The position numbers were made by a program, and so were the translations under genes. Source: an uncultured Bacilli bacterium (lineage in GTDB: Bacteria > Bacillota_I > Bacilli_A > RF39 > UBA660). From it: a stretch of DNA of 64,000 nt. Of the stretch, positions 20,227 through 53,820 are shown piece after piece. Within the stretch, counting starts at the first letter, position 1, and each line of letters opens with the position of its first letter. The notes beneath the pieces were generated by a model. The model did no database searches. It saw nothing but the letters and a program-made list of their open reading frames with translations, and was not told where the DNA came from. The stretch spans positions 21,214 to 85,213 of the forward strand of contig CAKPMC010000004.1 of NCBI GenBank assembly GCA_934167875.1, given 5' to 3'.

Positions 20227-20332
20227 TTAATAATAAAAAAAAGAAAAAACTAAAAAATTTTTCTTTTTTTTAGATATTTTAAAAAAAACTTAAATAATAC
20301 TATTAGAACCAATTAATGAGAGGGGGATAATT

Positions 20333-22450
20333 ATGAAAAAAACATTAATGGTTTTAATAGTATTGTTTTCTTTATTTATAGTACCAAACTTTAAAGTAAA
20401 TGCCTTAACCGATAGTTTTTATGTGAAAGAATACTTAAACAGTGAATATATTGTAAAAATAAAAGGTCAAACAGGTAAGTATGAACAGATGAGAGCATTC
20501 AGGAGAAAAAGTGATAATAGAATTGCTTATTGTTTAGAATTATGGGAAGGAATAAATGAAAATAAAACTTTAACTGGTTATGATGACGAACAGTATAATC
20601 ATGCTAACATAGATTATTCAAGTTGGGAAAAAGTAATGTTAATATCTTATTATGGATATGGTTACCAAAATCATACTGAACAAAAATGGATTGCGATAAC
20701 TCAATTTATGATTTGGAAAACTTTATCGCCAGATAGTACTTTATATTTTACTGATACCTTAAATGGTAAAAAAATAAATAAATATGAACAAGAAATGGCA
20801 GAAATAAATAACCTGATTAAAAATCATGCAACTATACCATCATTTGATAATCAAACTTTTAATACACGATATAAAGAAGATTATCAAATAATAGATGCCA
20901 ATAACATTTTAGATAAATATGATATAACTGGTTATAATACTAATAAAGTTAGTAAAGTAAATAATACCTTAACTGTAGCTACTACTGAAATAGGTGAGAA
21001 TATCGTTATCTTAGCTAACTCCGGTAAAAATTATAATAATAATCCAACAGTTTATATTGATCCTGCTGGTCAAGATTTATTAATATCAGGTAATTACATT
21101 CCTATTTATTCAGTAGTAAGATTTAACCTACCTGAAGGAAACATTACTGTTACTAAATTAGATAAAGATACTAATACTAAACTACCTCAAGGTAATGCCA
21201 GTCTTAATAATAGTAAATTTATTTTAATGGATAAAGATAATATGATAGTTTCAACTAAAACAATCACTAATAACAGCGAATTAACATTTGAACATCTAGG
21301 ATATGGTACTTATTATCTCAAAGAAATAGAATCAGGAAAGGGTTATCTTTTAAATGATAACGTTATTAAAATAGAAGTAAATAATAATTATGAAAATATT
21401 AATTTTTATAATCAGGTTATTAAAGAAAAAATCATCATAAAAAAATATATAAGAAATACTATAACTAATCAAATAGCCATAGAGGAGGGAGCCATTTTTT
21501 CTATCTATAATTCTAATAATGAAAAAATAACTACCTTTAAAACAGATGAAAATGGAGTATATGAATTAACTTTACCATATGGAGATTATTTACTAAAACA
21601 AGATTATGGTATGATAAATCATTCTTATATAAAAGATATTTTAATATCTATAAATAATAATGGTAATACACAATATCTTAATCTTTATAATGATGAACTA
21701 ACTGCTAAAGTAAAGGTAATTAATACAGATAGTGATTCTAATCTACCTATATTAGAAAGTGGTGCTTCTTTTAAAATAAAAAAATTAGATGGTGATATAG
21801 AAACTTTAATAACCAATGGTAATGGCTTTACCAATGAATTATTACTATCAAGTGGTAAATATCAATTAGAACAGATTTCTTCTGTTGATGGTTATGATAT
21901 TAATAAAAACATATTTGAATTTGAAATAACTGCAGATACTAATTTCATTAATGATAATGGTAATAACCTAATTGAATTAACTGTTCCTAATGATAAGTTA
22001 AAAGGTAAAATAAAAGTTATTAAAAAAACAGAATATTATTTAAATGATATTTTAACAGATACCAAAATAGAAGAATTAAATGATATAACTATTTATGCAA
22101 ATGATGATATTTATTCTAAAGATGAAATTAAACTATATGAAAAAAATAATATAGTTACTTCAAATTTATATTTTGGTACATATTATTTAATTAATCCAGT
22201 AACAAATGCTAAAATAGAATTAATTATCGATACTCCAAGTACCAGAAAAGTAGAAATTATTGAAAAAATATATGAATATGAAACTAAAGATAAAGAGGAA
22301 TCTGATCCAATAAAATCAGACTATGAAGAAATAATAACTAATGTACCTAACACTTACCAAAAGGAAACTATTTCTTATCTTAGTTCTTTACTAATACTTA
22401 CTGGTTTTATTTTAAATAAAATGGAGAAAAAACATGAAACTCATAAATAA
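20333..22450 (+). CDS. sortase-anchored surface adhesin with Cna-B-type (Y-x-L-x-E...G-Y) repeat domains; possible thioester-like N-terminal domain
   Basis: Signal peptide present. Three to four Y.L.E....GY motifs (GTYYLKEIESGKGY, GDYLLKQDYGM, GKYQLEQISSVDGY). The C-terminal sorting signal is NVPNTY followed by a hydrophobic stretch and a KKHETHK tail. The protein has a single Cys in YCLE and a TQFMIW motif. Confidence 0.65.
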   Translation: MKKTLMVLIVLFSLFIVPNFKVNALTDSFYVKEYLNSEYIVKIKGQTGKYEQMRAFRRKSDNRIAYCLELWEGINENKTLTGYDDEQYNHANIDYSSWEKVMLISYYGYGYQNHTEQKWIAITQFMIWKTLSPDSTLYFTDTLNGKKINKYEQEMAEINNLIKNHATIPSFDNQTFNTRYKEDYQIIDANNILDKYDITGYNTNKVSKVNNTLTVATTEIGENIVILANSGKNYNNNPTVYIDPAGQDLLISGNYIPIYSVVRFNLPEGNITVTKLDKDTNTKLPQGNASLNNSKFILMDKDNMIVSTKTITNNSELTFEHLGYGTYYLKEIESGKGYLLNDNVIKIEVNNNYENINFYNQVIKEKIIIKKYIRNTITNQIAIEEGAIFSIYNSNNEKITTFKTDENGVYELTLPYGDYLLKQDYGMINHSYIKDILISINNNGNTQYLNLYNDELTAKVKVINTDSDSNLPILESGASFKIKKLDGDIETLITNGNGFTNELLLSSGKYQLEQISSVDGYDINKNIFEFEITADTNFINDNGNNLIELTVPNDKLKGKIKVIKKTEYYLNDILTDTKIEELNDITIYANDDIYSKDEIKLYEKNNIVTSNLYFGTYYLINPVTNAKIELIIDTPSTRKVEIIEKIYEYETKDKEESDPIKSDYEEIITNVPNTYQKETISYLSSLLILTGFILNKMEKKHETHK

Positions 22451-22994
22451 GGGATTAATTATTTCCTTACTTGGAGTATTTCTATTTAGTTATCAAAATA
22501 TTACTAATCATAAAAAAATAGAAAAAGAAGAAAACAAGATATTTCAAACTTTAGCTAAAGAAACTGGTTATAATTATAAAGATAACGATACATATGATGG
22601 AATCATCGAAATACCACAAATAAATCTGCAAAAGGGTTTCTACCAAAAAAATGATAAAAGAAATAATATCAATGAAAATATAACTATCCATAATATGTCA
22701 ACTTATCCAAACGAAGATAATTCCAATCTTATTCTAATGGCACATTCTGGAAATGGTGAAAAAGCTTACTTTAATGATTTACCAAAGTTAAATACTGATA
22801 GTTTAATAAAAATATATTATCAAAATATTAAATATACTTATAAAATAGATAAGTATTATGAAGTACCTAAAACTGGTGATGTTTCTATAAAAAGAAATAT
22901 AAATAAAAAAACAATAACTCTAATTACTTGTAGTCAACAAGATAAGACTAAGCAATTAGTATACATAGGATACTTAATAGATGAAACAAAATAG
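22434..22994 (+). CDS. sortase (small class-B-like)
   Basis: N-terminal TM, a His motif LILMAHSG and the catalytic Cys motif TLITC. Confidence 0.7.
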   Translation: MKLINKGLIISLLGVFLFSYQNITNHKKIEKEENKIFQTLAKETGYNYKDNDTYDGIIEIPQINLQKGFYQKNDKRNNINENITIHNMSTYPNEDNSNLILMAHSGNGEKAYFNDLPKLNTDSLIKIYYQNIKYTYKIDKYYEVPKTGDVSIKRNINKKTITLITCSQQDKTKQLVYIGYLIDETK

Positions 22995-23008
22995 GAATAG
23001 CTATCAGG

Positions 23009-23422
23009 CTATTCCTTTATAAATCCATTAGTTTTAAATTTAGAAACAATTCTATCTTTAGAAACACTACCATTTATTCTAGATGATACAGTTTCTTCAA
23101 CTCCATCTTTATAGAAGATAACAGTAGGAGTACCAGTAATACCAGTCTCACTAAATAAACTATTTTCTTCTTCTTCAGTTATATGATCAGTATTAATAAA
23201 TTTAACTTCAACTTTATAACTATTAGCTACATCAGTTATTTTAGGTTTAAAGTTTATACAAGCACTACAATCAGTTCTCATAATTTCTAAAATAAACGTT
23301 TCTTTATTATCAAGTAATTCTTTATATTCCTTATAACTAATTTCCTTCATATAATCTTTTCCACAACCAGTCATTAGTAATAAACAAACTACTAATACAC
23401 AAAATTTAACTATTCTCTTCAT
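23009..23422 (-). CDS. thioredoxin-fold lipoprotein (CxxC thiol-disulfide oxidoreductase)
   Basis: Lipobox LLMTGC, the active site DCSACINF (CxxC) and a cis-Pro region GTPTVIFY. This is the only minus-strand gene in the island. Confidence 0.7.
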   Translation of the reverse strand: MKRIVKFCVLVVCLLLMTGCGKDYMKEISYKEYKELLDNKETFILEIMRTDCSACINFKPKITDVANSYKVEVKFINTDHITEEEENSLFSETGITGTPTVIFYKDGVEETVSSRINGSVSKDRIVSKFKTNGFIKE

Positions 23423-23527
23423 AATGCACCTCTCATAAAGTATAACACAAATCTATAAGTTTTACCTCTTTTTTTTAATCACAATTAATGCTATAATATA
23501 GCTAGAATAAAAATAGGAGGCTATACT

Positions 23528-25093
23528 ATGATACTTAGAAAACCGTATGCTTTTTTAATAAAGTATTTTCAAAAGATTAATATTCTACTACTCATCCTAG
23601 TTAGCTATGTCTTTTATAAGAACTTAAAAATATACCAATTTGCTAAAACATACTTAGCTACCGGTATTTATAATTCAAGTATTGATCCTATTAGTAACTA
23701 CGCTAATACTTATGTTTATTTAGCCTTTATATTTATCATTGTAATTAGTTTTATCCTAATTTATTTATTAAGACATAAGGATAAACCATATGCTAGTTAT
23801 GTTTTTGTTTTAGTATCTAATGTTATTGCCTTTGCTTTTTTCTTATATACTAGCCATTATTTTACTTATACAGTAACAGAAGGATATAATTTAGTAGCAA
23901 TTAGAGTAGTAAGAGATTTACTATTTATATCAACATTACCTTACTATCCAATGATATTTATTCTATTAATTCGTTCTATTGGTATTGATCTTAAAAACTT
24001 TGGTTTCCAAGAAGATAAAGAATTTGCTGAAATAAATGAATCAGATAGAGAAGAAGTAGAAGTACAAGTTGCTTTTAATAAAGATAGACTTATTCGTAAA
24101 ATAAAAAATAAGCTTCGCTATTTAAAATACTTCTTTTTAGAACACAAGTTTTCTCTTACGATAGTATTTGTTTTAATATTATTTATATTTGGTTATAACT
24201 TTTATAATTATTTTTATGTTGAAAATAAAGTTTATTCTATGAATGAATCATTTAATAGTAATTATTATCGTATTACTGTTAAAAACACTTACTTAACTGA
24301 TAAAGATTATGCTGGTAATATTGTATCAGAGACCGGTAAATTTTTTATAATTGCTCAAGTTCAAATTCAAAATTTATTAAGTTCTTCCAGAGATTTTGAT
24401 ATTGAAAAAATGTTATTGTTTATAGACCAAGATTATTATGTTCCAACTACTAAATATAATGTTCATTTTAGTGATATGGGTAATACTTATGAAAATAAAA
24501 GTATTAAACCTAAAGAAACAGTTACTTATTCCTTAATATATGAAGTAAAAAAGCCTAATTCAAAAGCTAACTTTTTACTAAAATATCAAGATGTTTTAGC
24601 TAAAGATGGTAAATTAATTGGTGTTAAGATGAAAGTATTAGATATTAGTACATTTAAAACTAAAGGTAATTTTACTTATCCAGAACAAGCAACTATTCCA
24701 ATTAATGAAGAAACTAGCATGACTTTTAGTTTTGATAAAATGGATATAACAGAAAGTAGTACTTATCGTTATCAATCATGTTTACCAGATTCATGCCCAA
24801 TTTATGAAAAAACTATAACAGCTCCATCTGGATATAAAATATTATATTTGAGAGGAAATTTTGGTAGTAATACCACTCAAGAATATTTGGATTTTCTAAA
24901 AAAATATGGTAAAATTCGCTATTCTAAAGATGGTAAGACTTACCAAAGTAATATTAAATTTGCTGTTACTGGAGCATATCAAGGTAGACATATTTATATT
25001 TCCATCCCGGATAGCATAGCTGATGCTGATTCCATATCATTTGTTTTTACTATTCGTACTTACCAATACTTCTATAAGTTAAAAGGAGAATAA
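23528..25093 (+). CDS. membrane protein with C-terminal extracytoplasmic DUF4352-like (Ig-like) domain
   Basis: 4-5 N-terminal TMs. The segment KFFIIAQVQIQN...DQDYYVPTT...ETVTYSLIYEV resembles the DUF4352 fold pattern. Confidence 0.4.
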   Translation: MILRKPYAFLIKYFQKINILLLILVSYVFYKNLKIYQFAKTYLATGIYNSSIDPISNYANTYVYLAFIFIIVISFILIYLLRHKDKPYASYVFVLVSNVIAFAFFLYTSHYFTYTVTEGYNLVAIRVVRDLLFISTLPYYPMIFILLIRSIGIDLKNFGFQEDKEFAEINESDREEVEVQVAFNKDRLIRKIKNKLRYLKYFFLEHKFSLTIVFVLILFIFGYNFYNYFYVENKVYSMNESFNSNYYRITVKNTYLTDKDYAGNIVSETGKFFIIAQVQIQNLLSSSRDFDIEKMLLFIDQDYYVPTTKYNVHFSDMGNTYENKSIKPKETVTYSLIYEVKKPNSKANFLLKYQDVLAKDGKLIGVKMKVLDISTFKTKGNFTYPEQATIPINEETSMTFSFDKMDITESSTYRYQSCLPDSCPIYEKTITAPSGYKILYLRGNFGSNTTQEYLDFLKKYGKIRYSKDGKTYQSNIKFAVTGAYQGRHIYISIPDSIADADSISFVFTIRTYQYFYKLKGE

Positions 25094-25094: not shown

Positions 25095-26903
25095 ATGAAA
25101 AAAAAGAAAAGAATTATTAAATTCATTATATTAGTATTAATAAGCTTACTTTTAATATTAAGTGGTATTATCTCTTGGAATGTTTATTTTTCCAAACAAA
25201 AGTTATTTGTTGATCAAGAAAAGTTATTTCTAAATGAAGTAAAACACTATTATGATTTAAATAAACAATATTTACCTAAAAAGGGTGAAACTAGAGAAAT
25301 GACTCTTCAAAATTTATATGATATTAATTATATTGATGGTCTCTATATACCTAAAACTAAAACTTTATGTGATAGTAATAGTTGGGTAAGAGTATACCAT
25401 AATGATAATGATGAATATGAATATACTACATATTTAAAATGTGGTAAATATGAAACAAAAGTAGATCATATTGGACCTAAAATAACTTTAAATGGTGATA
25501 TGCAATTAGTAATAGCACTAGGTAGTACTTATGAAGAATTAGGTGTAGCTAGTGTAGAAGATAATATTGATGGTAAAATTGATACTTCTAAAGTAATAAT
25601 AGAATCAAATGTAGATACTTCTAAGCTAGGTAGTTATGAAGTAACTTATACTATAAGAGATAAAAATTATAATAAAACAGTTGTAACTAGAACAGTAATA
25701 GTAGCTAATAATTTAACTGAAGTAGTAAAAAAGAATACTGATGCTACAGGTTATTATAAAGGATTGAATCAAAATAATTATTTATTATATTCAGGAATGT
25801 TATTTAGAATAGTTAAAGTTAATGAAGATGGTAGTATTAAATTAATAACAGATGAAGCTATTACTAATTTAAGAGCTGATTATGATAATTATGAAAATTC
25901 AAACGTTGATACTTGGTTAAAAGAAGTATATTTAAAAAGTTTAAATAAAACAGATAAATACTTAGTAGACAGTACATACTGTGTAGGTAATATAAATTCA
26001 ACTACTGATTATACTACTGAATGTAGTAGTACCATTACATCAAAAGTAGGCTTACTAAATATTAGTGATTATTATAATACACTAGCTAATAATAATTCAT
26101 CTATACATACATCACGATATATGTTAGCTAATAAAGTAGATAATAACTATTTATCTGCCCCAATTACAGATAAAGATATAACTGTGACTACAAAAATATT
26201 AGCACCAATTAGACCTGTTATTACATTAAAAGCTAATTTATATCTATTAAGTGGCAATGGAAGTAGTGATAACCCATATAAATTAGATGATTACAGTTAT
26301 GCTAAAGCAAATGACTTATTAAGCAGTAGAATAGTTGGTGAATATGTTCAATATTCTGGTCTATCATTTCGTATTATAGGAATTGATTCTAATAAAAATG
26401 TGAGATTAATTATGGCAGATCCATGGGTCGTTCAACCTAAAAATAAAGCTTTAACATTGAGTATAGAAAATTTAAGTAATACAAGATTTAATTTGACAGA
26501 AGAAAATAATCCAGGATACATTTTAAATAATGATTATTTAGACTATATTGATACAAAATCAATAGTTGATACAGAATATGAAATTCCAACAACAGTTGAT
26601 GAAGTAAATTACAATGACTATCAAACAACACCAATTAAAGCTAAAATTTTATTACCAAAAACTTATGAATTATTTGCTAGTAGCGGCAATAGTAAGGAAA
26701 ATATGATATCGTCATATATGTATATTGATTCAACAGATAATTCTAATACGGTATATGCAATAAATGGTGCAACTGGCAATGTTTTTGAATTTAATACTCA
26801 AGCCTTATCAGAATATAGAATACGTGCTGTACTAACTATAAAAGGTGATTTAAAAATATCAAGTGGCAAAGGAACAATTAATTCCCCATATTTATTAAAG
26901 TAG
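25095..26903 (+). CDS. N-terminally membrane-anchored extracellular protein, unknown function
   Basis: A single N-terminal TM followed by a 570-aa hydrophilic, Asn/Thr/Tyr-rich domain. Confidence 0.4.
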   Translation: MKKKKRIIKFIILVLISLLLILSGIISWNVYFSKQKLFVDQEKLFLNEVKHYYDLNKQYLPKKGETREMTLQNLYDINYIDGLYIPKTKTLCDSNSWVRVYHNDNDEYEYTTYLKCGKYETKVDHIGPKITLNGDMQLVIALGSTYEELGVASVEDNIDGKIDTSKVIIESNVDTSKLGSYEVTYTIRDKNYNKTVVTRTVIVANNLTEVVKKNTDATGYYKGLNQNNYLLYSGMLFRIVKVNEDGSIKLITDEAITNLRADYDNYENSNVDTWLKEVYLKSLNKTDKYLVDSTYCVGNINSTTDYTTECSSTITSKVGLLNISDYYNTLANNNSSIHTSRYMLANKVDNNYLSAPITDKDITVTTKILAPIRPVITLKANLYLLSGNGSSDNPYKLDDYSYAKANDLLSSRIVGEYVQYSGLSFRIIGIDSNKNVRLIMADPWVVQPKNKALTLSIENLSNTRFNLTEENNPGYILNNDYLDYIDTKSIVDTEYEIPTTVDEVNYNDYQTTPIKAKILLPKTYELFASSGNSKENMISSYMYIDSTDNSNTVYAINGATGNVFEFNTQALSEYRIRAVLTIKGDLKISSGKGTINSPYLLK

Positions 26904-26910: not shown

Positions 26911-27684
26911 ATGAAAAGCAGAAAAAAAATTATAGTAATTTTAGTGATTTTTATAATTGCAATAATTTTCTTAGTTATATCAATAAAAAAAATTACAACA
27001 AAAAAAGCTGATAACCAATTAATGAATTTAAATTTTAAAAGTAGGGTATCAGAACTAGAAAACTTTGATAGCAAGGATTATTCAAAAATAGGTTGGCTAC
27101 AGGTACAAGGTACAACTATTGACTTACCAATTTTAGATTTTAGAAGTGCTACTGATAATAGTATTAATTATTCCTATGCTTGGCTAAATTCCAATTATAA
27201 CACTGGAGAAAATCGCCAAGTAATTAATGGGCATAACATTTTAAATGTGTCATCAACGCCATTAATTAATGATGAGAATTTGACTGATTTTGAACCGTTA
27301 ATGGCATTTACATACGCAAGTTTTGCCAAAGATAATTTATATATTCAATATACAAAAGATAATCAAGATGAAATATATTTAATATATGCTGTTGGATTTT
27401 ATGATTATTTATATGATAGTGATTATAGTTACAATGACAAAGAAAAACTGACTAAATACATAAATGATGTAAGAGAAAATAGTATATACGATTACGAAAT
27501 AGATGTTAATTCAGATGATGATTTAATAGTATTAAAAACATGTACAAGATACTTTGGAGCAACAGAAAAGCAATCTTTTACTATTAACGCAAGAAAATTA
27601 AGAAAAAATGAAGAAATAGTTAAATATAAAGTAACAACGAATAAGTTATTTGATGAACTACTTAATAATAGCAAAAAAGGTTAA
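26911..27684 (+). CDS. sortase (class-B-like)
   Basis: N-terminal TM, GWLQVQGTTIDLPIL, His motif VINGHN, and the catalytic Cys in LIVLKTCTR. Confidence 0.7.
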   Translation: MKSRKKIIVILVIFIIAIIFLVISIKKITTKKADNQLMNLNFKSRVSELENFDSKDYSKIGWLQVQGTTIDLPILDFRSATDNSINYSYAWLNSNYNTGENRQVINGHNILNVSSTPLINDENLTDFEPLMAFTYASFAKDNLYIQYTKDNQDEIYLIYAVGFYDYLYDSDYSYNDKEKLTKYINDVRENSIYDYEIDVNSDDDLIVLKTCTRYFGATEKQSFTINARKLRKNEEIVKYKVTTNKLFDELLNNSKKG

Positions 27685-27741
27685 AAAATATTTAAAAAAC
27701 ATTTGAACTATGATATACTTTATTAAGATATAGAGGTGTTT

Positions 27742-37415: not shown

Positions 37416-37429
37416 AAAAAGGTGAAATT

Positions 37430-38404: not shown

Positions 38405-38407
38405 TAA

Positions 38408-38436: not shown

Positions 38437-38496
38437 ATATTGACTAATAAAGCCAATTATTATATTATTTAATTAGTATTAAGGAGGGAATTTGTT

Positions 38497-38826: not shown

Positions 38827-38842
38827 TAAATTGAATTAAAAT

Positions 38843-38875
38843 AATAGTAAAATCATTTTACTATTATTTTTTTTA
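38843..38875 (+). terminator. rho-independent terminator after the VirB2-like gene
   Basis: aatagtaaaa-tca-ttttactatt followed by ATTTTTTTT. Confidence 0.7.
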
Positions 38876-38921
38876 TGATATAATTACCTTGGTATATTAT
38901 AATTTCAAGGAGTGTAACTTT

Positions 38922-42379: not shown

Positions 42380-42399
42380 AAAGGAATGTGTGATATAAA

Positions 42400-45033: not shown

Positions 45034-45059
45034 AAAAGTAGTAAAGGCAGGTGAGCTGT

Positions 45060-47804
45060 ATGGATGAAGAACAAGAAAATTTAGAAAAGCAAAAGCAAGC
45101 TGATAATAATCAAAAGACAGCTCACGTTGCTGGTAAAGCAGCAGCAACTTACTATGGAGGAGCTGCTGGTGGTCAACTATATGATGCAGCAAGTAAAACT
45201 AAAGTAGGGCAAGCAATAGAAAAGAATGCAGCTAAAAATATCAGTAACAATCCTGCTTTAAATAGAGCCAGTCAAAAGTTAAATGATGTTGGCGCTATGG
45301 ATGCCGCTGACAAGGGAATTGATTTAGCTGGTGGCAGTATGGGCAAGGGGGCACCTAATCCATCAGGTGGTGGCATGAACAAGCCAGGACTATCACCATC
45401 TACAGGTAGTGAAGGTGGTAAACCAGGTTTAGATCAAGGTAATAAAACTTCTAATTCTGGAGAGTCATCAAATTCAAATACAAATACCTCAGGTGGTAAA
45501 AAGAAATTAAACAATCTTTTCGGAAGTGGCGAAGGTAATGCCGATAGCTCAGATAGTTCAACTGAAAATGAAAGTTATGCTAGCAAAATATTTAAATTTA
45601 TAAAAAGTCATCCTAAACCATTCATCTCTATGGGTGGTGGTTTTCTACTAATATTAGTACTAATCATAGCAGTTATTTCGATAGCTGATTCGGTAGTGGG
45701 TGGCGTTATTGATTTTTTCAACAACGTAAAAGACACACTAATAGGTTTCTTCACAAAAGATGAAGAAGAATTAATGAATGATTATTATGATACATTAAAA
45801 AATACTCAAATAGATATCAATGAAGATTATAGTGTTTGTATTGATGTAAATTTAATAACAGCTGCTCTTACAGTTAATGTAGCTGCTGATGATTTTGTTA
45901 ACGATGGTGAACAGATTGATCCATCTGGAGACGGCGACACTACAACTAATGAAGATGGTACTCAATCTACTAAACCATATAAAAAAATGACAAAGCAAGT
46001 AAAACTTTTAGCATATATGCAACTTATGACTAGTAAATATGGTTTAGATAAAAGTTATAAAGAAACTAATGGTAGTTATTGTAGTAGTGACAATAAAACG
46101 CCAGTGTTAGTAGATAGTAGCAAAGTAAATGATTATGAAGGTGAAAAAACACCTTGGGTAAGTATAGATAGTTCAAATTTTGATTTAATATCTAGACATG
46201 ATTTGGGTGAAAATCTTAACTTTAAATTATTAAAAACAACGTCAGAAAAAAATTATGCCTATTATTTATATTATCCTAAATATAATTCTGATGGTAGTTG
46301 TGATGATTCATATGCTAAAGGTGCATTACCAGAAGAGAAAAAAGAGTTAAGTATAGGTGATTTAAAGACAAAAGAAGATTCTGTTTTCTACTGGAATTTA
46401 ATTAACTCATTTATACCAGATTATTATAAAGACTATTTACCAGATAAAGATGCTGCTAATTATGATGAAGCTGTAAAGAAAATAGCTGATGATATATATC
46501 TATTATATGCTGAAACAGGACCTAGCCAAACATGTGCTAGTAGTTATCAAGGACCATCTAGTCTATGTCCAAATGGTATAACCGTAGTTGGTAAAGATGG
46601 TAATGCTAGTACAATCGATTTTGAAGAATACATAGCTGGAGTTGTTTCAAATGAAGCTTATAGTAGTGAAGGAATGGAAGCACTAAAGGCACAAGCAGTA
46701 GCAGCTCGTACCTATGCTATTAATTTAACTAATTATTGTGAAAAAACTATTTCTAATAGTACCAATGCTCAAACATTTACCAAAGATATTAATGATAGAG
46801 CACGAGAAGCAGCAACCTCAACCGCTGGTGAAATACTAGTGGATTCAAATGGTAAAATCTTTGGAGCTCAGTATGATTCTTTCTGTTATGATGATAAAGA
46901 CTGTCCAGATGCTAAGAAAAATGCTGATGGAACATATTCAGTTACTTATACCAAAGTTCCTAATGGAGAAAAACATGTAATTACTTTAAGTGATCCTAAA
47001 CAATATGGAAGAATAACGCATGGTAAAGGACATGCTCATGGTATGAGTCAGTTATTATCATATCAAATGGCAAAAGAAGGAAAAACTTATCAAGAAATAT
47101 TATCTTATTTCTATTCAGATGGTGTAACAATTAATTTAGTATTATCACCAACTACTACTGAAGGTGGTACGATTATTAATAAACCAATTGAACACTATTT
47201 AAGTGCCGTTGGAACCAACATTAATAATATGAATCAAACTATCTATAGCCAAGTAAGAAAAGCAGGAGTTGGAACTAGAGAAGGTGTTGTGGCAGCTGCC
47301 GTAACCTTAATTAATAACTTCTATTCACAAACAGGATATCTTCTTCCATATGAGTTATATCCTAGTGGTAAATATTCAGGATATGGAATGGATCCAAGTT
47401 GGGGTACTAACACAGGAAGATCCGATTATCCTTCAAATGGTTTAGATTGTAGTGGCTTTGTTTCATGGGCTATTCATAATGGTGGCTTCAAGTACGAAGT
47501 AAAAAGTGCTAAAGGATGGGGCGATTCCAGCGCAAGAAGACCTTGGACTAAAGGAATGACTGATACCTCAGCTAAACCAGGTGATTTAATCTATAACGCA
47601 CCTCAAAGTGCTAATGGTACTACAGGTCATATTAGAATGATAGTTGAAGTTACCAAAGAAGGTTATGTTGTAGCTGAAGCAAGTTCTAGAAAAAATGGTG
47701 TTAGAATCAAAACCATTTCCTTTACAAGTACAGGTAATTATTATTTAGTTAATATGGATAACTATTATGCCAGTGCTACAAAAGTAACAGATTACCCACA
47801 ATAG
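45060..47804 (+). CDS. T4SS-associated cell-wall hydrolase: N-terminal G/S-rich region, TM, SpoIID/LytB-like domain and C-terminal NlpC/P60 peptidase (CwlT/TcpG/Orf14 analogue)
   Basis: SpoIID-like EYIAGVVSNEAYSSEGMEALKAQAVAARTYAIN and NlpC/P60 Cys-His region GLDCSGFVSWAIHNGG...TGHIRMIV. One TM near residue 200. Confidence 0.7.
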   Translation: MDEEQENLEKQKQADNNQKTAHVAGKAAATYYGGAAGGQLYDAASKTKVGQAIEKNAAKNISNNPALNRASQKLNDVGAMDAADKGIDLAGGSMGKGAPNPSGGGMNKPGLSPSTGSEGGKPGLDQGNKTSNSGESSNSNTNTSGGKKKLNNLFGSGEGNADSSDSSTENESYASKIFKFIKSHPKPFISMGGGFLLILVLIIAVISIADSVVGGVIDFFNNVKDTLIGFFTKDEEELMNDYYDTLKNTQIDINEDYSVCIDVNLITAALTVNVAADDFVNDGEQIDPSGDGDTTTNEDGTQSTKPYKKMTKQVKLLAYMQLMTSKYGLDKSYKETNGSYCSSDNKTPVLVDSSKVNDYEGEKTPWVSIDSSNFDLISRHDLGENLNFKLLKTTSEKNYAYYLYYPKYNSDGSCDDSYAKGALPEEKKELSIGDLKTKEDSVFYWNLINSFIPDYYKDYLPDKDAANYDEAVKKIADDIYLLYAETGPSQTCASSYQGPSSLCPNGITVVGKDGNASTIDFEEYIAGVVSNEAYSSEGMEALKAQAVAARTYAINLTNYCEKTISNSTNAQTFTKDINDRAREAATSTAGEILVDSNGKIFGAQYDSFCYDDKDCPDAKKNADGTYSVTYTKVPNGEKHVITLSDPKQYGRITHGKGHAHGMSQLLSYQMAKEGKTYQEILSYFYSDGVTINLVLSPTTTEGGTIINKPIEHYLSAVGTNINNMNQTIYSQVRKAGVGTREGVVAAAVTLINNFYSQTGYLLPYELYPSGKYSGYGMDPSWGTNTGRSDYPSNGLDCSGFVSWAIHNGGFKYEVKSAKGWGDSSARRPWTKGMTDTSAKPGDLIYNAPQSANGTTGHIRMIVEVTKEGYVVAEASSRKNGVRIKTISFTSTGNYYLVNMDNYYASATKVTDYPQ

Positions 47805-47813
47805 GAGGATATA

Positions 47814-48551
47814 ATGAAAAAGAAAATATTTATATTAACATTTTTACTCCTTTGTGTAACAGGTTGTAATGCTAATTACGATATAGAAATATATAATAAT
47901 CAAGTAAAAGAGGATATGCAATTTGTTGAATTAGATTCATCAGTTTGGGATAGTGAGGTACAATATGGCCTTAGTTACCGTAACTTATTAGAAGCTTCAA
48001 TTGATTATCCATATCCTGCTTTTAATGATGCTGTAGTAGATGAAGATGATACCATTAAATTAGAAGGTGTTGAATATTATGATAATACTTTAATATCAGA
48101 TAATCTTAAATTAGGACAAAGATTAAAATATAATAAATTTACTTTAAATGATTTCAGTAAGTCATCAATAGTTAGAAAATGTTATCAATATTTTACTGTT
48201 AAAGAAGAGGAAGATAATATAATAATTTCTACATCACTAGAAAACCTATGCTTTAGTGAATATCCAATCTTAGACAGAATAACTATAAATCTAAAAACAA
48301 ATCATAAAGTAGTTAGTAGTAATGCAACCAAGGTAAAAGGATATCACTATACATGGGATATTACTAGAGATAATAGTAGTGATAGTGCTATTTCAATTAC
48401 TCTTAAAAAAGATGATTATATTTTCAATTATGAAAATGAATTCATTAAAAAAATTATTTACATTGTTCTAATAGTTGGTATAATACTAAGTGTTAGTAGT
48501 ATATGTTACTTTTACTTTAAAAATAAGAATAAACGATTAAATGAAATCTAG
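47814..48551 (+). CDS. lipoprotein with C-terminal TM anchor, unknown function
   Basis: Lipobox LLCVTGC. Hydrophobic helix IIYIVLIVGIILSVSSICYF near the C-terminus. Confidence 0.45.
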   Translation: MKKKIFILTFLLLCVTGCNANYDIEIYNNQVKEDMQFVELDSSVWDSEVQYGLSYRNLLEASIDYPYPAFNDAVVDEDDTIKLEGVEYYDNTLISDNLKLGQRLKYNKFTLNDFSKSSIVRKCYQYFTVKEEEDNIIISTSLENLCFSEYPILDRITINLKTNHKVVSSNATKVKGYHYTWDITRDNSSDSAISITLKKDDYIFNYENEFIKKIIYIVLIVGIILSVSSICYFYFKNKNKRLNEI

Positions 48552-48561
48552 GAGGTAGTAT

Positions 48562-50835
48562 ATGAAATTAAAGTTTAAAGCAGATGCAACTGATGTATTA
48601 ATATTTGTAATATTTGCTATATTTTTATTCTATATAGTTTGCTTAGGAGTACTTAATTTTCCTGAGTTAGCACTAAATGGACATTTTTATGGACTAAATC
48701 CATTTCCTGCTTTAGCACCTGACAGGATTGTTACAACTTTAGTTTTTTATCTTATCTTCCTAGCTGCTATTTTTGCATCTGTATCATCATATTTCTTTGA
48801 AAGAGAAAGTGGTTTTGGTTTCTCAACAGAAAAATCTTCAAAAGGTTACAGTCATTGGGCCAAAGAAAAAGAAATTAAAAGTGATAACGGTGTTGAAATG
48901 GTAAAACCAACAGCTGATAAGTCAGAATATGCTGGTATACCACTAATTATAAAAAAAGATGAAGTATGGGTAGATAACGGTGAGTATCACTCATTAGTAA
49001 TAGGAGCTACCGGATCAGGTAAAACTCAAACTGTTATTTTTCCTACTGTAGAAGTTTTAGCTAAGAAAAGAGAATCAATGATTATCACTGACCCTAAAGG
49101 TGAAATCTATGAAAAAACTTCAAATATGCTACGTGACAAAGGTTATGATGTCTTAGTACTTAACTTCCGTGATCCACAAAATGGTAGTGCTTGGAACCCA
49201 TTATCTCTTCCATATCGTATGTATAAATCAGGAAATCAAGATAAAGCTATTGAGTTATTAGATGACCTAGCTGCTAATATTCTTTATGAAGAAAAAAGTG
49301 GTAATGCTGATCCATTCTGGGAAAAAACATCAGCTGATTATTTTGCAGGACTTGCTCTTGGTATGTTTGAAGATACCACAGAAGATAAAGTAAATATTAA
49401 TAGTATTAGTTTAATGACAACTGTTGGTGAAGAAAAATTTGGCGGTTCTACATACATTAAAGAATATTTCAATACTAAAGATCCTAGTAGTCCAGCATAT
49501 ACAAATGCCAGTGGTACTATAATGGCACCTAGTGAAACTAAAGGAAGTATCATTTCTGTATTTAAACAAAAAATAAAATTATTTGCATCTCGTGAAAATT
49601 TATCAGAAATGTTAAGTCATAGTGATATAGATCTTGAAACTATTGGTGAAAAACCTACAGCCTTATTCATTATCATTCAAGATGAAAAGAAAACTTACCA
49701 TCCATTAGTTACAATTTTATTAAAACAATGTTATGAAACATTAATAGCTACAGCTCAAAAACATGGTGGAAAATTACCAGTTAGAACTAATTTCTTACTA
49801 GATGAGTTTGCTAATATGCCACCACTTAAGGATATAACTACAATGATTACAGCAGCCCGTAGCCGTCAAATTCGTTTTACAATGATAATTCAAAACTTTG
49901 CTCAATTAGATCAAGTGTATGGTAAAGAAAATGCAGAAACTATCAAAGGTAACTGTGGAAATATTATTTACTTAATAACAACCGAATTAAAAGCTCTAGA
50001 AGAAATCAGTAAAATGTGTGGTGAAGTAAAATCTAAGAAAGATGATAAAACAGCTTCAACACCACTTGTTACTATAAGTGATTTGCAACGTATGAAACAG
50101 TTTGAAGTAATTATTATGCGTATGCGTAAGAACCCTTTCAAAACTAAATTTGTTCCATATTATCAAATGGATTTTGGTAAAAAATATGCTAAAGCTGAAT
50201 ATCCAGAGCGTACTAAGGAAGAAGTTCATACTTTTGACTTAAGAGAATATGTAAAAGAAAAGAAAAAAGAAAAATTAATGCAAATGATGAATGATCCTCA
50301 ATCAGCTCCAATGGGTGGTATGCCAAACGGTATGCCTGGTGGTTTTGGAATGCCAAATATGAATTCATTCCCTCAAGGCGGTATGTTTGGACCTCGATCA
50401 ACACCTATGCCAGATAATAGACCAAATTCTATGAGTTCCAATAGTGAAATGGGAAATGGTGCTGGAATTAATGTAGATGATATTATTAAGAAAATTGATG
50501 CTAAAATCGCTGAAATTGAAAAAGAGGAACAACAGAAAAAACAACAGAATAATATTACTGAAGAGCCAAAATCAACAATTGAACCTAAATTAGAAGTCAA
50601 GGAAGAAAAAGTCCCTGATACCACTCCTAAAGAAAAATTAACAATTGATGATCTATTAAAACCATCTTCAAATCAAGAAATTATTCCAAAAGAAGAAAAT
50701 TTAAAAGAAGACAAAAAGTTAGAGGAAATGGTACCAGTTAATGAACCTAAACCAATAATTCATGAAGAAAAAATACCACCTAAAGAAGATAATATTAGTG
50801 ATGATCAATTCTTTGATGATTTCTTTGATGATTAA
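48562..50835 (+). CDS. type IV coupling protein (VirD4/TraG family) with long disordered Met/Gly/Pro- and Glu/Lys/Pro-rich C-terminal tail
   Basis: Two N-terminal TMs, Walker A VIGATGSGKTQ and Walker B FLLDEFANMPP. The C-terminal tail contains PMGGMPNGMPGGFGMPNMNSFPQGGMFGP repeats. Confidence 0.8.
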   Translation: MKLKFKADATDVLIFVIFAIFLFYIVCLGVLNFPELALNGHFYGLNPFPALAPDRIVTTLVFYLIFLAAIFASVSSYFFERESGFGFSTEKSSKGYSHWAKEKEIKSDNGVEMVKPTADKSEYAGIPLIIKKDEVWVDNGEYHSLVIGATGSGKTQTVIFPTVEVLAKKRESMIITDPKGEIYEKTSNMLRDKGYDVLVLNFRDPQNGSAWNPLSLPYRMYKSGNQDKAIELLDDLAANILYEEKSGNADPFWEKTSADYFAGLALGMFEDTTEDKVNINSISLMTTVGEEKFGGSTYIKEYFNTKDPSSPAYTNASGTIMAPSETKGSIISVFKQKIKLFASRENLSEMLSHSDIDLETIGEKPTALFIIIQDEKKTYHPLVTILLKQCYETLIATAQKHGGKLPVRTNFLLDEFANMPPLKDITTMITAARSRQIRFTMIIQNFAQLDQVYGKENAETIKGNCGNIIYLITTELKALEEISKMCGEVKSKKDDKTASTPLVTISDLQRMKQFEVIIMRMRKNPFKTKFVPYYQMDFGKKYAKAEYPERTKEEVHTFDLREYVKEKKKEKLMQMMNDPQSAPMGGMPNGMPGGFGMPNMNSFPQGGMFGPRSTPMPDNRPNSMSSNSEMGNGAGINVDDIIKKIDAKIAEIEKEEQQKKQQNNITEEPKSTIEPKLEVKEEKVPDTTPKEKLTIDDLLKPSSNQEIIPKEENLKEDKKLEEMVPVNEPKPIIHEEKIPPKEDNISDDQFFDDFFDD

Positions 50836-50842
50836 TAATTAT

Positions 50843-50874
50843 AAGAATAGCTATTTTACTAGCTATTCTTTTTA
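50843..50874 (+). terminator. rho-independent terminator after T4CP gene
   Basis: aagaatagcta-ttttac-tagctattctt followed by TTT. Confidence 0.65.
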
Positions 50875-50921: not shown

Positions 50922-51239
50922 ATGTATGATTCTATTGACATTAATGGAATAGATCAAATTCATATTACTACTACCAATACACAACAATCTAATTCTAGAA
51001 TATTAATAGATATTAGAGACAAATATGAATATATTTTAGGAAATATTAGTAATTCAGTTAATATTCCATATAATTATTTAGCCCTTTTACCAGAAAATTA
51101 TTTAAATAAAACCTCAATTTATTACATCTATTGCGATTGTGGTAAAAAAAGTAGAAAACTTTGCTTATTTCTAAATCAATTAGGTTATAAAACTATAGAT
51201 TTAACTGGTGGTTATAAAAATTATCATAAACATGACTAA
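50922..51239 (+). CDS. single-domain rhodanese-like protein
   Basis: 105 aa. Motif LIDIRDKYEY and the active-site loop YCDCGKKSRK. Confidence 0.55.
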   Translation: MYDSIDINGIDQIHITTTNTQQSNSRILIDIRDKYEYILGNISNSVNIPYNYLALLPENYLNKTSIYYIYCDCGKKSRKLCLFLNQLGYKTIDLTGGYKNYHKHD

Positions 51240-51295: not shown

Positions 51296-52405
51296 ATGAG
51301 TGAATATTTAGAAATAATTAAAACATCTTTTATTTTTTTTCCAGTTATAGCCTTTATATTTACTATTCCTTATATATTAATTCAATATCATAAATATGGT
51401 TCCATTTATTATTTAAGGGTAATAATTGTTTACTCATTTATCCTATACTTATTAACGGCCTATTTCTTAGTTGTTTTACCATTGCCAAGCATTGAAACAG
51501 TAAGTAAATTAACTACTCCAACAACGCAGTTAATACCATTTAAGTTTGTTCAGGATTTTATTAATGAAACTTCATTATCAATCACTAACATTCATACATA
51601 CATTAAAGCATTATTAGAGCCTTGTTTCTATGTAGTAATATATAATATACTATTATGTCTACCATTTGGAATATACATGCACTATTACTTTAAAAAGAGT
51701 CTAAAGAAAACAGTTCTGTGTACATTTTTATTAAGTTTATTTTTTGAATTAACACAATTAACAGGTTTATATTTTATCTATCCTAGAGGTTATCGTTTAT
51801 TCGATGTTGATGATCTAATTTTAAATACCTTTGGAGGTTTACTTGGCTATTATATTGGAAAATTATTTATAAAAATTTTACCAAATAGGGATAGAATAGA
51901 TGAAAAGTCATATCAGTTAGGTCATAAAGTATCTTTTTTAAGAAAATTAGTAGCCCTTAACATAGATCTGTTCCTATTAGCAGCAACTATTTCTATTTTA
52001 TCTATCTTTACCGCAAACCGTTATTTATATTATTTTTTGATTATTGTATATTATATATTAATTCCAATAATTACTAATGGTAAAACACTATCGTATATAT
52101 TTTTGAACTTAAAAATAGATGGTAATGATATTAAATCTAAAAAATATCAAATATTAGTAAGACAAATATTATGGCTATTAGAAATGGTACTTCCTATGTT
52201 ATTAATTGAAATAATAGATAAATATATATCTAATTTATCAATTACTTATATACTTCTAATAACACTAATTATATTTAATTATTATTTAATAATATTAATA
52301 AAAGTATTTCTGAAAAAAACATTAATTTATGAAAAACTAAGTAAAACTCACATAGTTAGTACTATAAATGAAAAACTTGAAAAAGATAAAAAAATAACTG
52401 ACTAA
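51296..52405 (+). CDS. VanZ-family / RDD-family membrane protein
   Basis: VanZ-like motif FELTQLTGLYFIYPRGYRLFDVDDLILNTFGGLLGY. The C-terminal half has RDD-like TM helices. Confidence 0.5.
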   Translation: MSEYLEIIKTSFIFFPVIAFIFTIPYILIQYHKYGSIYYLRVIIVYSFILYLLTAYFLVVLPLPSIETVSKLTTPTTQLIPFKFVQDFINETSLSITNIHTYIKALLEPCFYVVIYNILLCLPFGIYMHYYFKKSLKKTVLCTFLLSLFFELTQLTGLYFIYPRGYRLFDVDDLILNTFGGLLGYYIGKLFIKILPNRDRIDEKSYQLGHKVSFLRKLVALNIDLFLLAATISILSIFTANRYLYYFLIIVYYILIPIITNGKTLSYIFLNLKIDGNDIKSKKYQILVRQILWLLEMVLPMLLIEIIDKYISNLSITYILLITLIIFNYYLIILIKVFLKKTLIYEKLSKTHIVSTINEKLEKDKKITD

Positions 52406-52554
52406 ATATATTATAAGAAGCAAATTATTTAAGAATTTGTTTCTTTTTTTTTAACTTTTTTAATAATTTCTTAGATATTTATAAAAAAATAGAAATAATA
52501 CTATTGTGAGTAAAGACGTCTTACTTCAAAAAATATAAATAAAAGAGGAATGAT

Positions 52555-53379
52555 ATGTTAAAAGATGAAATAAGAAACATGAAAATAGATGTAATGAATG
52601 ATGCATTAGCTAAAGCTCTTTTAAGAAGCGAAGAAGCAAGAGAAGTAGTAGCAACATTTATAAGTAAAGTAGCAGGAATAGATAAAGAATTATTAATTAA
52701 TGCGAAATATGTAGGAGGAGAAATACCAAAGAAAAAGATATATGAAAAAAATAAAGAATCAGATGTGATGGTTTTAATAGATGAGAATCATAGGATAATA
52801 GTAGAAATAAATAGAAATAGTACTAATTATATATTTGATAAGAATTCATCATATGCTATGGCAAGTATTATAGAGATGACTAGGCCAAGAAATACTAGAT
52901 TTCCAACAGTAATATTAATAAACTTAGATAATTTTAATAAGTATCATACTAAGTTACCAGTATTAACATTTGTACCAAGAGATGAAGAAGGAAATATAGA
53001 GACAAATTTATATAAATCAATACATATAATACTTGAAAATATAGTTAACCAAGAGTATACTATAGATAACGAAATAGTTAAGTTTGCGAAACTATTGAGA
53101 GCTAAAAGTATAGAAGAGTTAGAAAAAGAATTCAAGGAAGATGATAATTATATGAAAGCGGTAAATAAGATAGAAGAGTTATTAATGGATCCTAATTTTG
53201 CTGGAGCATATGATGTAGAAGAAAGAAGAGCTTTTGATATGGAAGATATGCGTCTTACTGGTAAAAAGGAGAAACAGCTTGAAATAGCTAAAAAGATGTT
53301 AAAGGATATAACAGATTATAATTTGATTGCTAAATACACAGGCTTATCAATAGAAGAAATAAAAGAATTAAAAGTTTAG
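52555..53379 (+). CDS. Rpn/YhgA-family recombination-promoting nuclease / putative transposase (PD-(D/E)XK)
   Basis: 274 aa with DVMVLIDENHRIIVEIN (D...E.N core). The C-terminal tail LEIAKKMLKDITDYNLIAKYTGLSIEEIKELKV is typical of this family. Confidence 0.5.
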   Translation: MLKDEIRNMKIDVMNDALAKALLRSEEAREVVATFISKVAGIDKELLINAKYVGGEIPKKKIYEKNKESDVMVLIDENHRIIVEINRNSTNYIFDKNSSYAMASIIEMTRPRNTRFPTVILINLDNFNKYHTKLPVLTFVPRDEEGNIETNLYKSIHIILENIVNQEYTIDNEIVKFAKLLRAKSIEELEKEFKEDDNYMKAVNKIEELLMDPNFAGAYDVEERRAFDMEDMRLTGKKEKQLEIAKKMLKDITDYNLIAKYTGLSIEEIKELKV

Positions 53380-53393
53380 TAAAGCTTAATCTA

Positions 53394-53731
53394 CTATAGA
53401 TAACGAAATAGTTAAGTTTGCGAAACTATTGAGAGCTAAAAGTATAGAAGAGTTAGAAAAAGAATTCAAGGAAGATGATAATTATATGAAAGCAGTAAAT
53501 AAGATAGAAGAATTATTAATGGATCCTAATTTTGCTGGAGCATATGATGTAGAAGAAAGAAGAGCTTTTGATATGGAAGATATGCGTCTTACTGGAAAGG
53601 ATGAAGGGATAGCAGAAGGTAAAAAGAAGCAGCAGCATGAGATAGCTAAAAAGATGATTAATAAGGGTATGGATCTTTCTTCTATTTTTGAATTAACAGG
53701 CTTATCAATAGAAGAAATAAAAAAATTATAG
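53394..53731 (+). pseudogene. tandemly duplicated 3' segment of the Rpn-family gene carrying an alternative, more canonical C-terminal tail
   Basis: About 205 bp at 53061-53268 is repeated at 53394-53601 with about 3 mismatches. The copy then continues ...GKDEGIAEGKKKQQHEIAKKMINKGMDLSSIFELTGLSIEEIKKL*. It has no start codon or RBS of its own. Confidence 0.55.
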
Positions 53732-53754
53732 ACTAGCCTAAAATACTGTTAAGT

Positions 53755-53796
53755 AACACCGATATGTAGTAATTTAACTATTATCGGTGTTTATTT
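53755..53796 (+). terminator. hairpin plus T-run terminator
   Basis: aacaccgata...tatcggtgtt followed by TATTTTGG. Confidence 0.45.
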
Positions 53797-53820
53797 TGGT
53801 AAAAAAATAGCAAAAAAATC

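Follow-up and report, generated by a model that had tools for sequence, protein, structure and literature searches.

The 64 kb of DNA analyzed here (the window, that is, the whole stretch, taken from contig CAKPMC010000004.1 of assembly GCA_934167875.1 of an uncultured Bacilli bacterium of the RF39 lineage) contains a chromosomal cluster of type IV secretion system (T4SS) genes with no recognizable gene for processing DNA, and the question raised by this locus is whether such a cluster is still a mobile element or has become a machine of the cell. An earlier note on this sequence had described an island bordered at 20.28 and 53.8 kb, set between core-chromosome flanks, which carried VirB4, VirD4, VirB6 and a hydrolase and lacked a relaxase, integrase or replication initiator (Rep), and had proposed a domesticated T4SS with a role other than self-transfer. 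We consider it likely that the region is an anciently domesticated, chromosome-fixed descendant of a Firmicutes conjugation module, of the type in which a Tad-like pilus is combined with an MPF-FATA-type T4SS, and that the envelope machine has been kept and inherited vertically in a large lineage of gut Bacilli with small genomes which includes RF39. The gene content and the flanks described in the note were confirmed and the proposal of domestication was supported, as set out below, while the proposed borders were not, as the conserved unit was found to extend from 23009 to 51239 with accessory genes at both edges. This unit also includes a Tad-like pilus module (27.7–38.4 kb) which had been overlooked.

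Family scans with Pfam and NCBIfam took in every open reading frame (ORF) of at least 80 residues in the window, which has a G+C content of approximately 25%. All long ORFs between 20.3 and 53.8 kb lie on the + strand with the sole exception of a thioredoxin gene, and the gene coordinates given for this interval refer to the + strand unless stated otherwise. For the species comparison VirB4 relatives were sought in a set of genomes with a single member for each GTDB species and gene order was read in the best 80 of at least 502, while the upstream half of the unit was compared in long metagenome contigs gathered with a T2SSE alignment.

The gene string from 38497 to 50835 corresponds to a Gram-positive T4SS made up of VirB2-like, VirB6-like, PrgI-like, split VirB4, hydrolase and VirD4 proteins. 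VirB4 is encoded by two overlapping ORFs which together span 42698–45033 (+), a 595-residue ATPase ORF (43246–45033, Pfam P-loop_TraG/AAA_10) and a separate 183-residue ORF for the N-domain (42698–43249) which matched the TraC-like family PF26593 and the NCBIfam VirB4_plasma/Mbov_0397 family (E = 5e-13). The best solved relative was the Thermoanaerobacter VirB4 (PDB 4AG5, E = 5e-54), and sequence similarity places this protein firmly within the Firmicutes type. The VirD4 coupling protein (48562–50835, T4SS-DNA_transf E = 3e-61) has a low-complexity C-terminal tail, and the VirB1-type bifunctional wall hydrolase (45051–47804) combines SpoIID and CHAP/NlpC_P60 Pfam domains and is membrane-anchored. 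The evidence for VirB6 is weaker: the polytopic protein at 40253–42379, which is extended at length at its C-terminus, was taken as a putative VirB6-like channel protein from its six predicted transmembrane (TM) segments, its position and sub-threshold NCBIfam matches (MMCAP2_0566/pLS20_p028/Mbov_0396, E = 2e-12 to 1e-7).

The smaller T4SS proteins were assigned in a similar manner. A two-TM protein, p107 (42400–42723), is VirB3/PrgI-like by position and has an N-terminal YLIPxN motif in common with the PrgI protein of the Bacillus thuringiensis plasmid pBMB68, the hhalign match being weak (probability 22%). A two-TM hairpin protein (38497–38826) resembles VirB2 (T4SS_pilin E = 5e-4, Mbov_0395 pilin-like E = 0.03, both below cut-off), and the secreted coiled-coil protein p456 (38889–40259) ends in a VirB2-like two-TM domain at residues 377–438 (T4SS_pilin E = 0.009, below threshold) and has three to four paralogues in each of the loci L142, L160 and L161. 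A lipoprotein with a C-terminal TM segment (47814–48551, from sequence and TM prediction) sits where a VirB8-like component could be, which makes it a plausible candidate for that role by position. The string is followed by a single-domain rhodanese of 105 residues with an active-site-like CDCGKKS loop (50922–51239), which adjoins virD4 in 42 of the 80 species loci and forms the right end of the conserved unit.

The pilus module lies directly upstream. It begins with a 972-residue secreted protein (27736–30654) which has a signal peptide and 31 cysteine residues and could be a pilus-associated adhesin; a metagenome scan using this protein found nothing, and a large ORF occupies the same place before the DUF5411 gene both in relatives and in pBMB68. 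The DUF5411 protein (30665–31099, Pfam E = 8e-48) has a pilin-like N-terminal TM segment, and its family also precedes the CpaB-like gene in pBMB68. It is followed by a CpaB/RcpC-like pilus assembly protein (31116–31976; RcpC E = 2e-6, SAF; NCBIfam pilus_cpaB E = 1e-8, below curated cut-offs) and by a T2SSE-family ATPase of the TadA/CpaF/FlaI/VirB11 group with a low-complexity C-terminal tail (32004–33521, Pfam T2SSE E = 3e-27), for which FlaI, CpaF and VirB11 were alike the best PDB matches at about E = 1e-17 (CpaF E = 2e-17). Two polytopic membrane proteins occupy the TadB/TadC (platform) position (33533–35211). No Pfam family, T2SSF included, and no PDB sequence matched this pair; the two proteins were placed by position and by homology to the pair of genes which follows the T2SSE gene of pBMB68 (E = 2e-8 and 1e-5), and have a median identity of 65–71% across species. 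Paralogy between the TadB-like and the TadC-like protein was weak by hhalign (probability 10%).

Further along, a 61-residue Flp-like pilin candidate (36673–36858) consists of a characteristic N-terminus and a hydrophobic helix. The N-terminus, MK(A/E)ATGELN(L/M)T, is near-invariant among 31 species, with six columns identical in all and 12 more at 90% or above. A minor-pilin-like protein, p173 (36894–37415), which has an N-terminal G-x hydrophobic helix and no family match, is often duplicated in relatives; its hhalign comparison with the DUF4320 protein of pBMB68 was not significant. The module closes with a 324-residue TadZ/CpaE-like protein (37430–38404). An AlphaFold2 model of this protein (predicted local distance difference test, pLDDT, 74) contained a receiver-like N-domain and a ParA/MinD-fold domain, with FleN, MinD and ParA as top Foldseek matches (probability 1.0). 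Its Walker A motif is degenerate (…HSGATM…) with the lysine lost, and the protein aligns across the P-loop region to the AAA ATPase of pBMB68. Profile searches against PDB with this protein and with the TadB-like and TadC-like proteins gave nothing useful. In five metagenome contigs (L099, L106, L135, L144 and L162) a Tad-like module comprising DUF5411, CpaB, the ATPase and the platform-like pair was seen with no T4SS genes after it, indicating that the two modules can occur apart.

A variable polytopic membrane protein with no family match (35277–36590) lies outside the conserved core, as most species lack it and its identity in same-species contigs is only 45%. It forms part of a strain-variable cassette between the TadC-like and the Flp-like pilin genes, located at 35277–36672 in the window and at 729–3437 in contigs L001–L005, where the cassette contains an extra gene of 456–461 residues on the opposite strand which is absent from the window.

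Four genes for surface or secreted proteins complete the conserved unit on its left. The leftmost, on the − strand, encodes a lipoprotein-type, TraF-like thioredoxin (23009–23422; Thioredoxin E = 8e-12, TraF E = 5e-5); it marks the left end of the unit and is found upstream of the cluster in L093, L112–L116, L172 and other loci. It may form disulfides in the cysteine-rich secreted parts. A polytopic membrane protein (23528–25093, DUF4352 E = 9e-5) was modelled by AlphaFold2 (pLDDT 82) as a helical membrane domain followed by two extracytoplasmic-type DUF4352 beta-sandwiches, and its Foldseek matches were the Bacillus and Clostridioides DUF4352 proteins YxkC, YjhA and CD630_09570 (E = 6e-6 to 3e-5), and also YcdA (overall range E = 6e-6 to 1e-4). 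The next gene encodes an Ig-like surface protein anchored in the membrane by an N-terminal TM segment or signal anchor (25095–26903; Bact_surface_Ig-like E = 1e-18, DUF6273), and the last a divergent class-B-like sortase (26911–27684; sub-threshold matches to NCBIfam sortase_srtB, E = 5e-9, and Pfam Sortase, E = 2e-4) in which a …LKTC… motif was seen.

The composite unit is widely distributed. A VirB4 protein search recovered more than 7000 homologues, the best 120 of which were all at least 81% identical, and VirB4 relatives were encoded by at least 502 species genomes, the best 80 at 76–96% identity. The carriers are titled uncultured Bacilli or 'Tenericutes', Clostridium sp. CAG:710, Ca. 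Onthousia and Ca. Faecimonas, the last of which is the GTDB genus CAG-877 of the order RF39 (PMC8035907). The order CpaB, ATPase, platform-like pair, Flp-like pilin, minor pilin, TadZ-like protein, VirB2-like protein and p456, then VirB6, PrgI-like protein, VirB4 N-domain, VirB4, hydrolase, lipoprotein, VirD4 and rhodanese, was shared by approximately 80 species, and the upstream order (thioredoxin where present, 23528-like protein, Ig-like protein, sortase-B-like protein, large secreted protein, DUF5411) was kept in the long metagenome contigs. The VirB4 family forms one 50%-identity cluster among 1.84 billion representatives, the next full-length relatives being 44% and 41% identical and the rest at most 35%.

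The pattern of divergence is that predicted by vertical descent. In the seven loci which also contained typA, VirB4 and TypA identities to the window were 94/94, 91/90, 87/86, 87/85, 87/88, 87/86 and 87/86% (r = 0.96), so that VirB4 tracks TypA as such descent would require. In all same-species contigs listed with an identical acyltransferase gene the cluster was right beside it, and the left junction was thus occupied; the comparison with strains lacking the region which the earlier note had suggested yielded no empty site among these contigs. Raised G+C as a foreign signature was considered and rejected, since the 30–36% observed at 28–34 and 39–51 kb equals that of typA (33%) and points to conservation and not to foreign origin.

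The rate of divergence differed markedly between the parts of the machine. Median identities were high for the motors (VirB4 79%, TadB-like protein 71%, VirD4 67%, T2SSE ATPase 66%) and low for the exposed parts (p456 36%, hydrolase 33%, VirB6 32%). Compared with the same-species contigs L004 and L005, the window was 84% identical in DNA over 36.6–41.6 kb as against 99% over 42.4–52.5 kb, and p456 and VirB6 were 61–65% identical between same-species strains in which VirB4, hydrolase and VirD4 were 99–100% identical; for p456 a value of 61% was obtained between strains with 100%-identical VirB4. The hypervariable interval 36600–41620 suggests allelic replacement or diversifying selection on exposed T4SS parts. 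Conserved motors with surface parts which vary within a species fit a machine that must match or evade variable partners.

The search for mobility genes was negative throughout. No Pfam or NCBIfam match to a relaxase, a tyrosine or serine recombinase or a Rep protein was obtained from the ORFs of the 64-kb window, which confirmed the absence reported in the earlier note, and nothing resembling the MobP3 relaxase of pBMB68 was found there by tblastn (best E = 4.2). No recombinase was present at the cluster borders in L171–L173, nor among recurrent neighbours (25 of 43 Pfam families), and no relaxase, oriT-like site, single-stranded DNA-binding protein (SSB), primase or partition gene was found in or beside the cluster in the loci examined. 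An inverted-repeat scan of the region gave no convincing candidate for an origin of transfer (oriT). The note had named the ORFs beginning at 23528, 25095 and 37430 as possible hidden relaxases or integrases, and profile and structure searches ruled out all three: 37430 has a ParA/MinD fold and is TadZ-like, 23528 is a membrane domain with DUF4352 beta-sandwiches, and 25095 combines a Bact_surface_Ig-like domain with a signal anchor. By hydropathy scan only five proteins of the conserved unit had neither a TM segment nor a signal peptide, namely the T2SSE ATPase, 37430, the two VirB4 pieces and the rhodanese. As all soluble proteins are thus accounted for, and the remainder are membrane or secreted proteins or were identified by fold, a novel DNA-processing enzyme within the locus, which had also been proposed, is very unlikely.

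Inheritance by vertical descent in hundreds of species after the loss of the genes for DNA mobility indicates that the machine probably serves the cell itself, not a mobile element. The strongest competing explanation, which we regard as unlikely but worth weighing, is that the machine still moves DNA, as a conjugation or DNA-release apparatus of the host which would act on chromosomal DNA or mobilizable elements, either with a relaxase and oriT provided in trans by another part of the genome or by small mobilizable elements, or by a relaxase-independent route such as that proposed for chromosomal transfer in mycoplasmas. VirD4 was retained in 71 of the 80 loci, at a median identity of 67% and with its TrwB_AAD_bind domain, every relative of known context is a conjugative element, the best NCBIfam matches of the T4SS proteins were families of mycoplasma integrative and conjugative elements (ICEs; Mbov_0395/0396/0397), and a RmuC gene lay downstream in 34 species loci, all of which would be in keeping with DNA transfer. 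However, the absence of relaxase, oriT-like site, SSB, primase and partition gene held for every locus examined, and conservation at the level of TypA over hundreds of species would be unusual for a gene-transfer function.

We judged it highly improbable that the region is a cryptic self-transmissible ICE, with a novel relaxase or integrase among its unannotated ORFs and with att sites in the form of a 35-nucleotide (nt) imperfect direct repeat which was found by the repeat scan. The two intergenic copies (left, 20270–20304; right, 52471–52505; both +; TTAGATATTT..AAAAAAA...AAATAATACTATT) are 32.2 kb apart, and the repeat is far above chance, with a score of 21 as compared to at most 14 for all other intergenic pairs and with no equal in 2000 shuffles. 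The right copy lies approximately 50 nt upstream of an Rpn/PDDEXK_2 gene, so that a gene for an Rpn-family PD-(D/E)XK protein is situated just outside it. However, the repeat was seen in same-species contigs only and its right copy is at the start of a multi-copy Rpn repeat, where assemblies break, which makes it more likely that the 35-nt sequence belongs to the Rpn repeat, perhaps as the end of its unit, or serves as a promoter or operator common to both places. The unannotated ORFs all encode membrane or secreted proteins or were identified by fold, the Rpn and VanZ genes next to the right copy are absent from relatives which have the same cluster beside typA, the junction was occupied in all same-species contigs listed, and divergence tracks TypA. 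The 35-nt repeat was thus rejected as an att site, a reading which is not proven. The direct repeats which the earlier note had proposed to look for at 20.23–20.33 and 53.73–53.87 kb were also searched for, and no significant repeat was found.

Finally, a decaying ICE remnant with no present function, to which the loss of all mobility genes could point, is scarcely credible when all of approximately 27 genes are intact in the window, as they are in about 80 species, the median VirB4 identity is 79%, the motors evolve as slowly as TypA, and the only split ORF seen was the VirD4 tail in L004.

A number of observations weigh against a domesticated machine of the cell, or limit how far that conclusion can be carried. 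VirD4 has kept a TrwB_AAD_bind domain (E = 2e-24), with which DNA substrates would be compatible, and the 35-nt repeat brackets most of the region as att sites would. No Peptidase_A24 match for a prepilin peptidase was obtained among the window ORFs. The VirB6, PrgI, VirB2 and TadB/TadC assignments depend on weak or sub-threshold similarity together with position, and these names should be taken as putative. The figure of at least 502 is the number of species carrying a VirB4 relative and is not a share of RF39. The neighbour-gene survey covered 25 of the 43 Pfam families which recurrent neighbours matched and left out 59 singleton neighbours, and the relaxase, integrase and Rep search covered the window and the loci compared, not whole genomes. 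The role of the machine is itself a prediction from its genes.

With this in mind, a domesticated machine of the cell would be expected to work as follows. From homology and gene order, the T2SSE ATPase, the platform-like pair, the CpaB-like protein and an ATPase-dead TadZ-like organizer would assemble a filament of the Flp-like pilin and minor pilins, while the cysteine-rich protein, the Ig-like protein, the sortase-B-like enzyme and the thioredoxin may supply and mature adhesive parts which touch the other cell. The SpoIID and CHAP hydrolase would then open the wall, and the VirB6-like protein, the PrgI-like protein and split VirB4 would form the membrane channel, with the VirB2-like proteins as its putative extracellular part. 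More speculatively, VirD4 might feed in a cytoplasmic substrate other than the DNA of the locus itself, either protein or a nucleic acid that depends on factors encoded outside the locus.

A recent review describes as a long-standing open question whether any Gram-positive T4SS has come to serve a purpose other than conjugation, and treats Patescibacteria as the only monoderm group in which the T4SS is essential and possibly forms pili (PMC12857230). The present locus suggests a second case, independent of that one, inside Bacillota and in hundreds of species, with a Tad-like pilus fused to the T4SS and the mobility genes stripped away. It also provides a handle on the biology of RF39, in the form of a partner-contact machine with hypervariable surface parts, and the mobile and domesticated versions of one module offer a natural comparison for the co-option of conjugation systems. 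In a HiFi-metagenome study RF39 comprised 154 human-gut species with no isolate (10.1101/2022.02.09.479829), and a literature search in which RF39 genome papers were included found no paper tying RF39 to a T4SS. By analogy, one might propose that the pilus and T4SS supercluster is a lifestyle organ with which RF39 attaches to cells and takes up or exchanges macromolecules, as a Bacillota counterpart of the essential T4SS/pilus pair of Saccharibacteria. We hold this proposal to be doubtful at present; if true, it would explain both the unculturability of RF39 and the TypA-like conservation of the motors.

The genes at the edges of the conserved unit are accessory. On the left, a surface adhesin with TED and SpaA domains and a C-terminal sorting-signal-like tail (20333–22450; SpaA E = 2e-27, TED E = 5e-7) is paired with an accessory sortase (22434–22994, Pfam Sortase E = 7e-16). 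These two genes (20333–22994) were found in close relatives only, the adhesin being present in L171 and L174–L179 and missing at the same position in L172 and L173. On the right, a VanZ-family membrane protein identified by Pfam (51296–52405) and the Rpn genes (52555–53731) lie outside the system. VanZ and Rpn together (51296–53731) are species- or strain-specific, VanZ being missing in L008–L014. In L006 only 87 nt lie between the rhodanese stop codon and the 35-nt motif (the window rhodanese–VanZ spacer was not aligned to L006), a gap far too short for the 1.1-kb VanZ gene. In near relatives, the passage from rhodanese directly to typA is the ancestral right junction. The Rpn-family nuclease genes which had been noted at the right border were confirmed as an Rpn/PDDEXK_2 gene (52555–53379) and a duplicated 3' fragment (53429–53731), with the 3' part of the gene repeated in tandem at 99% identity (53058–53264 and 53392–53598). 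Five independent same-species assemblies (contigs L001–L005) stop at or just before the Rpn gene, indicating that it is probably multi-copy in the genome.

Beyond these genes the flanks are core chromosome, as the earlier note had stated, the left one containing polysaccharide-synthesis genes and the right one typA-lspA-rluD. The bordering genes are housekeeping genes which change from genus to genus. The left neighbours differed by locus, being polysaccharide genes in the window and L171, rpsP…uppS-cdsA-rseP in L172 and cdaA-ybbR in L173. On the right, typA was present in near relatives and DedA- and RmuC-like genes in many others; the DedA/VTT-family and RmuC-family genes followed the rhodanese in 30–34 species (L007–L086), approximately 9–11 kb downstream of virB4. 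SpoVA genes were found near the cluster in several relatives, which suggests that at least part of the clade may form spores. Within the window, the core flank on the right encodes a 633-residue protein (59235–61136) whose N-terminus matches the prepilin methylation motif (N_methyl, E = 7e-8) and which could be part of another system, either a type IV pilus or a competence pseudopilus; an unannotated ORF of 160 residues (61138–61620) directly follows it. In the left part of the window a glmS ribozyme/riboswitch (6410–6555; Rfam RF00234, 65 bits), which was the sole Rfam match, lies upstream of glmS (6562–8355).

Few regulatory signals were recognized. Promoter and terminator scans found no more sites than in shuffled sequence, and just three of the hairpins were of use. 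A G+C-containing terminator-like hairpin (22993–23016) between the accessory sortase gene and the convergent thioredoxin gene and a second terminator-like hairpin with an 11-bp stem 3' of virD4 (50843–50870) bracket the long gene string. The inverted-repeat scan found a perfect 16-nt palindrome just 3' of the VirB2-like gene (38838–38870) which might act as an attenuator, and a near-consensus promoter-like site (38408–38436) is located ahead of the T4SS half.

VirB4 matched 2674 plasmid records, mostly from Enterococcus, Bacillus and Staphylococcus, of which the nearest was 28% identical, and the closest mobile relatives, pBMB68 and an ICE of Thomasclavelia ramosa, have VirB4 identities of 28–34%; the few named outgroup VirB4s recovered were those of Erysipelotrichales and of one Mycoplasmatota plasmid, with none from Patescibacteria among them. 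The B. thuringiensis plasmid pBMB68 (NZ_CP010581; typed as conjugative, MOBP) contains the same pilus and T4SS composite module as the window. Its T4SS part runs MobP3 relaxase, VirD4, small ORF, TrbL, PrgI, VirB4-N-like, VirB4 and NlpC/P60 hydrolase, and its pilus part large ORF, DUF5411, SAF/CpaB, AAA ATPase, T2SSE ATPase, two membrane proteins and DUF4320. BLASTP identities to the window proteins were 31% for VirD4, 29% for VirB4, 32% for CpaB, 29% for T2SSE and 22–23% for the platform proteins. The two modules stand in opposite order, the T4SS coming first on the plasmid and the pilus first in the window, and the ATPase in the TadZ position keeps a GK(A)T P-loop in pBMB68, whereas the window protein has lost the lysine. 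The plasmid also has replicons, a protein with a primase domain and, immediately 5' of virD4, the gene for the MobP3 relaxase, none of which has a counterpart in the window.

The T. ramosa ICE (Erysipelotrichales), whose VirB4 is the nearest named one at 34%, has the same core of VirB6-like protein, small TM protein, VirB4-N, VirB4 and hydrolase, and carries sortase-dependent SpaA adhesins beside its T4SS much like the adhesin and sortase at 20333–22994 of the window. It differs in encoding an SSB and a Toprim primase, in the serine recombinase found where the element meets core genes, in the lack of a Tad-like module within 10 kb, and in having the distribution of a mobile element. In the Mycoplasma ICEs, the families Mbov_0395, Mbov_0396/MMCAP2_0566 and Mbov_0397 were, in the same order, the best NCBIfam matches of the VirB2-like protein, the VirB6-like protein and VirB4-N, far below cut-offs; these elements are mobile, with a DDE recombinase, and are without a Tad-like module. 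As the mobile versions carry a relaxase, primase, SSB or recombinase and the window keeps the envelope machine only, the window cluster appears to be a derivative of a mobile module.

The pilus half has a CpaB-like protein, a CpaF/TadA-group ATPase, a TadZ/CpaE-like protein, two platform-position proteins and a short pilin with minor pilins in common with Tad/Flp (type IVc) pili such as Caulobacter Cpa. It differs from these in the N-terminus of the pilin candidate, MKxATG|ELNxT, which is unlike the Flp G|xxxxEY, in an ATPase for which archaeal FlaI and VirB11 are just as near, and in having no secretin, the host being monoderm.

The nearest functional analogue is the T4SS of Patescibacteria. 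The T4SSs of Patescibacteria and Saccharibacteria are likewise monoderm, derived from the mating pair formation class MPF-FATA, chromosomal, clade-wide, found in uncultured bacteria with small genomes and usually without a relaxase (PMC12102498; PMC10633639; PMC12857230), and the Patescibacteria T4SS is essential for the epibiotic growth of Southlakia (PMC12102498; PMC12857230). Both these systems and that of the window have a split VirB4 (with a TrsD-like N-domain ORF in Patescibacteria) and wall hydrolases, and the putative PrgI-like and VirB6-like proteins and VirB2-like pilin genes of the window, the last of which can be multi-copy and divergent as in Patescibacteria, add to the likeness. 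VirD4 is always encoded inside the cluster in the system of the window but mostly elsewhere in Patescibacteria, and is non-essential in S. epibionticum. The likeness is one of gene content and spread, and the T4SS of the window differs from those of Patescibacteria in its Bacillota host and in the Tad-like pilus to which it is fused.

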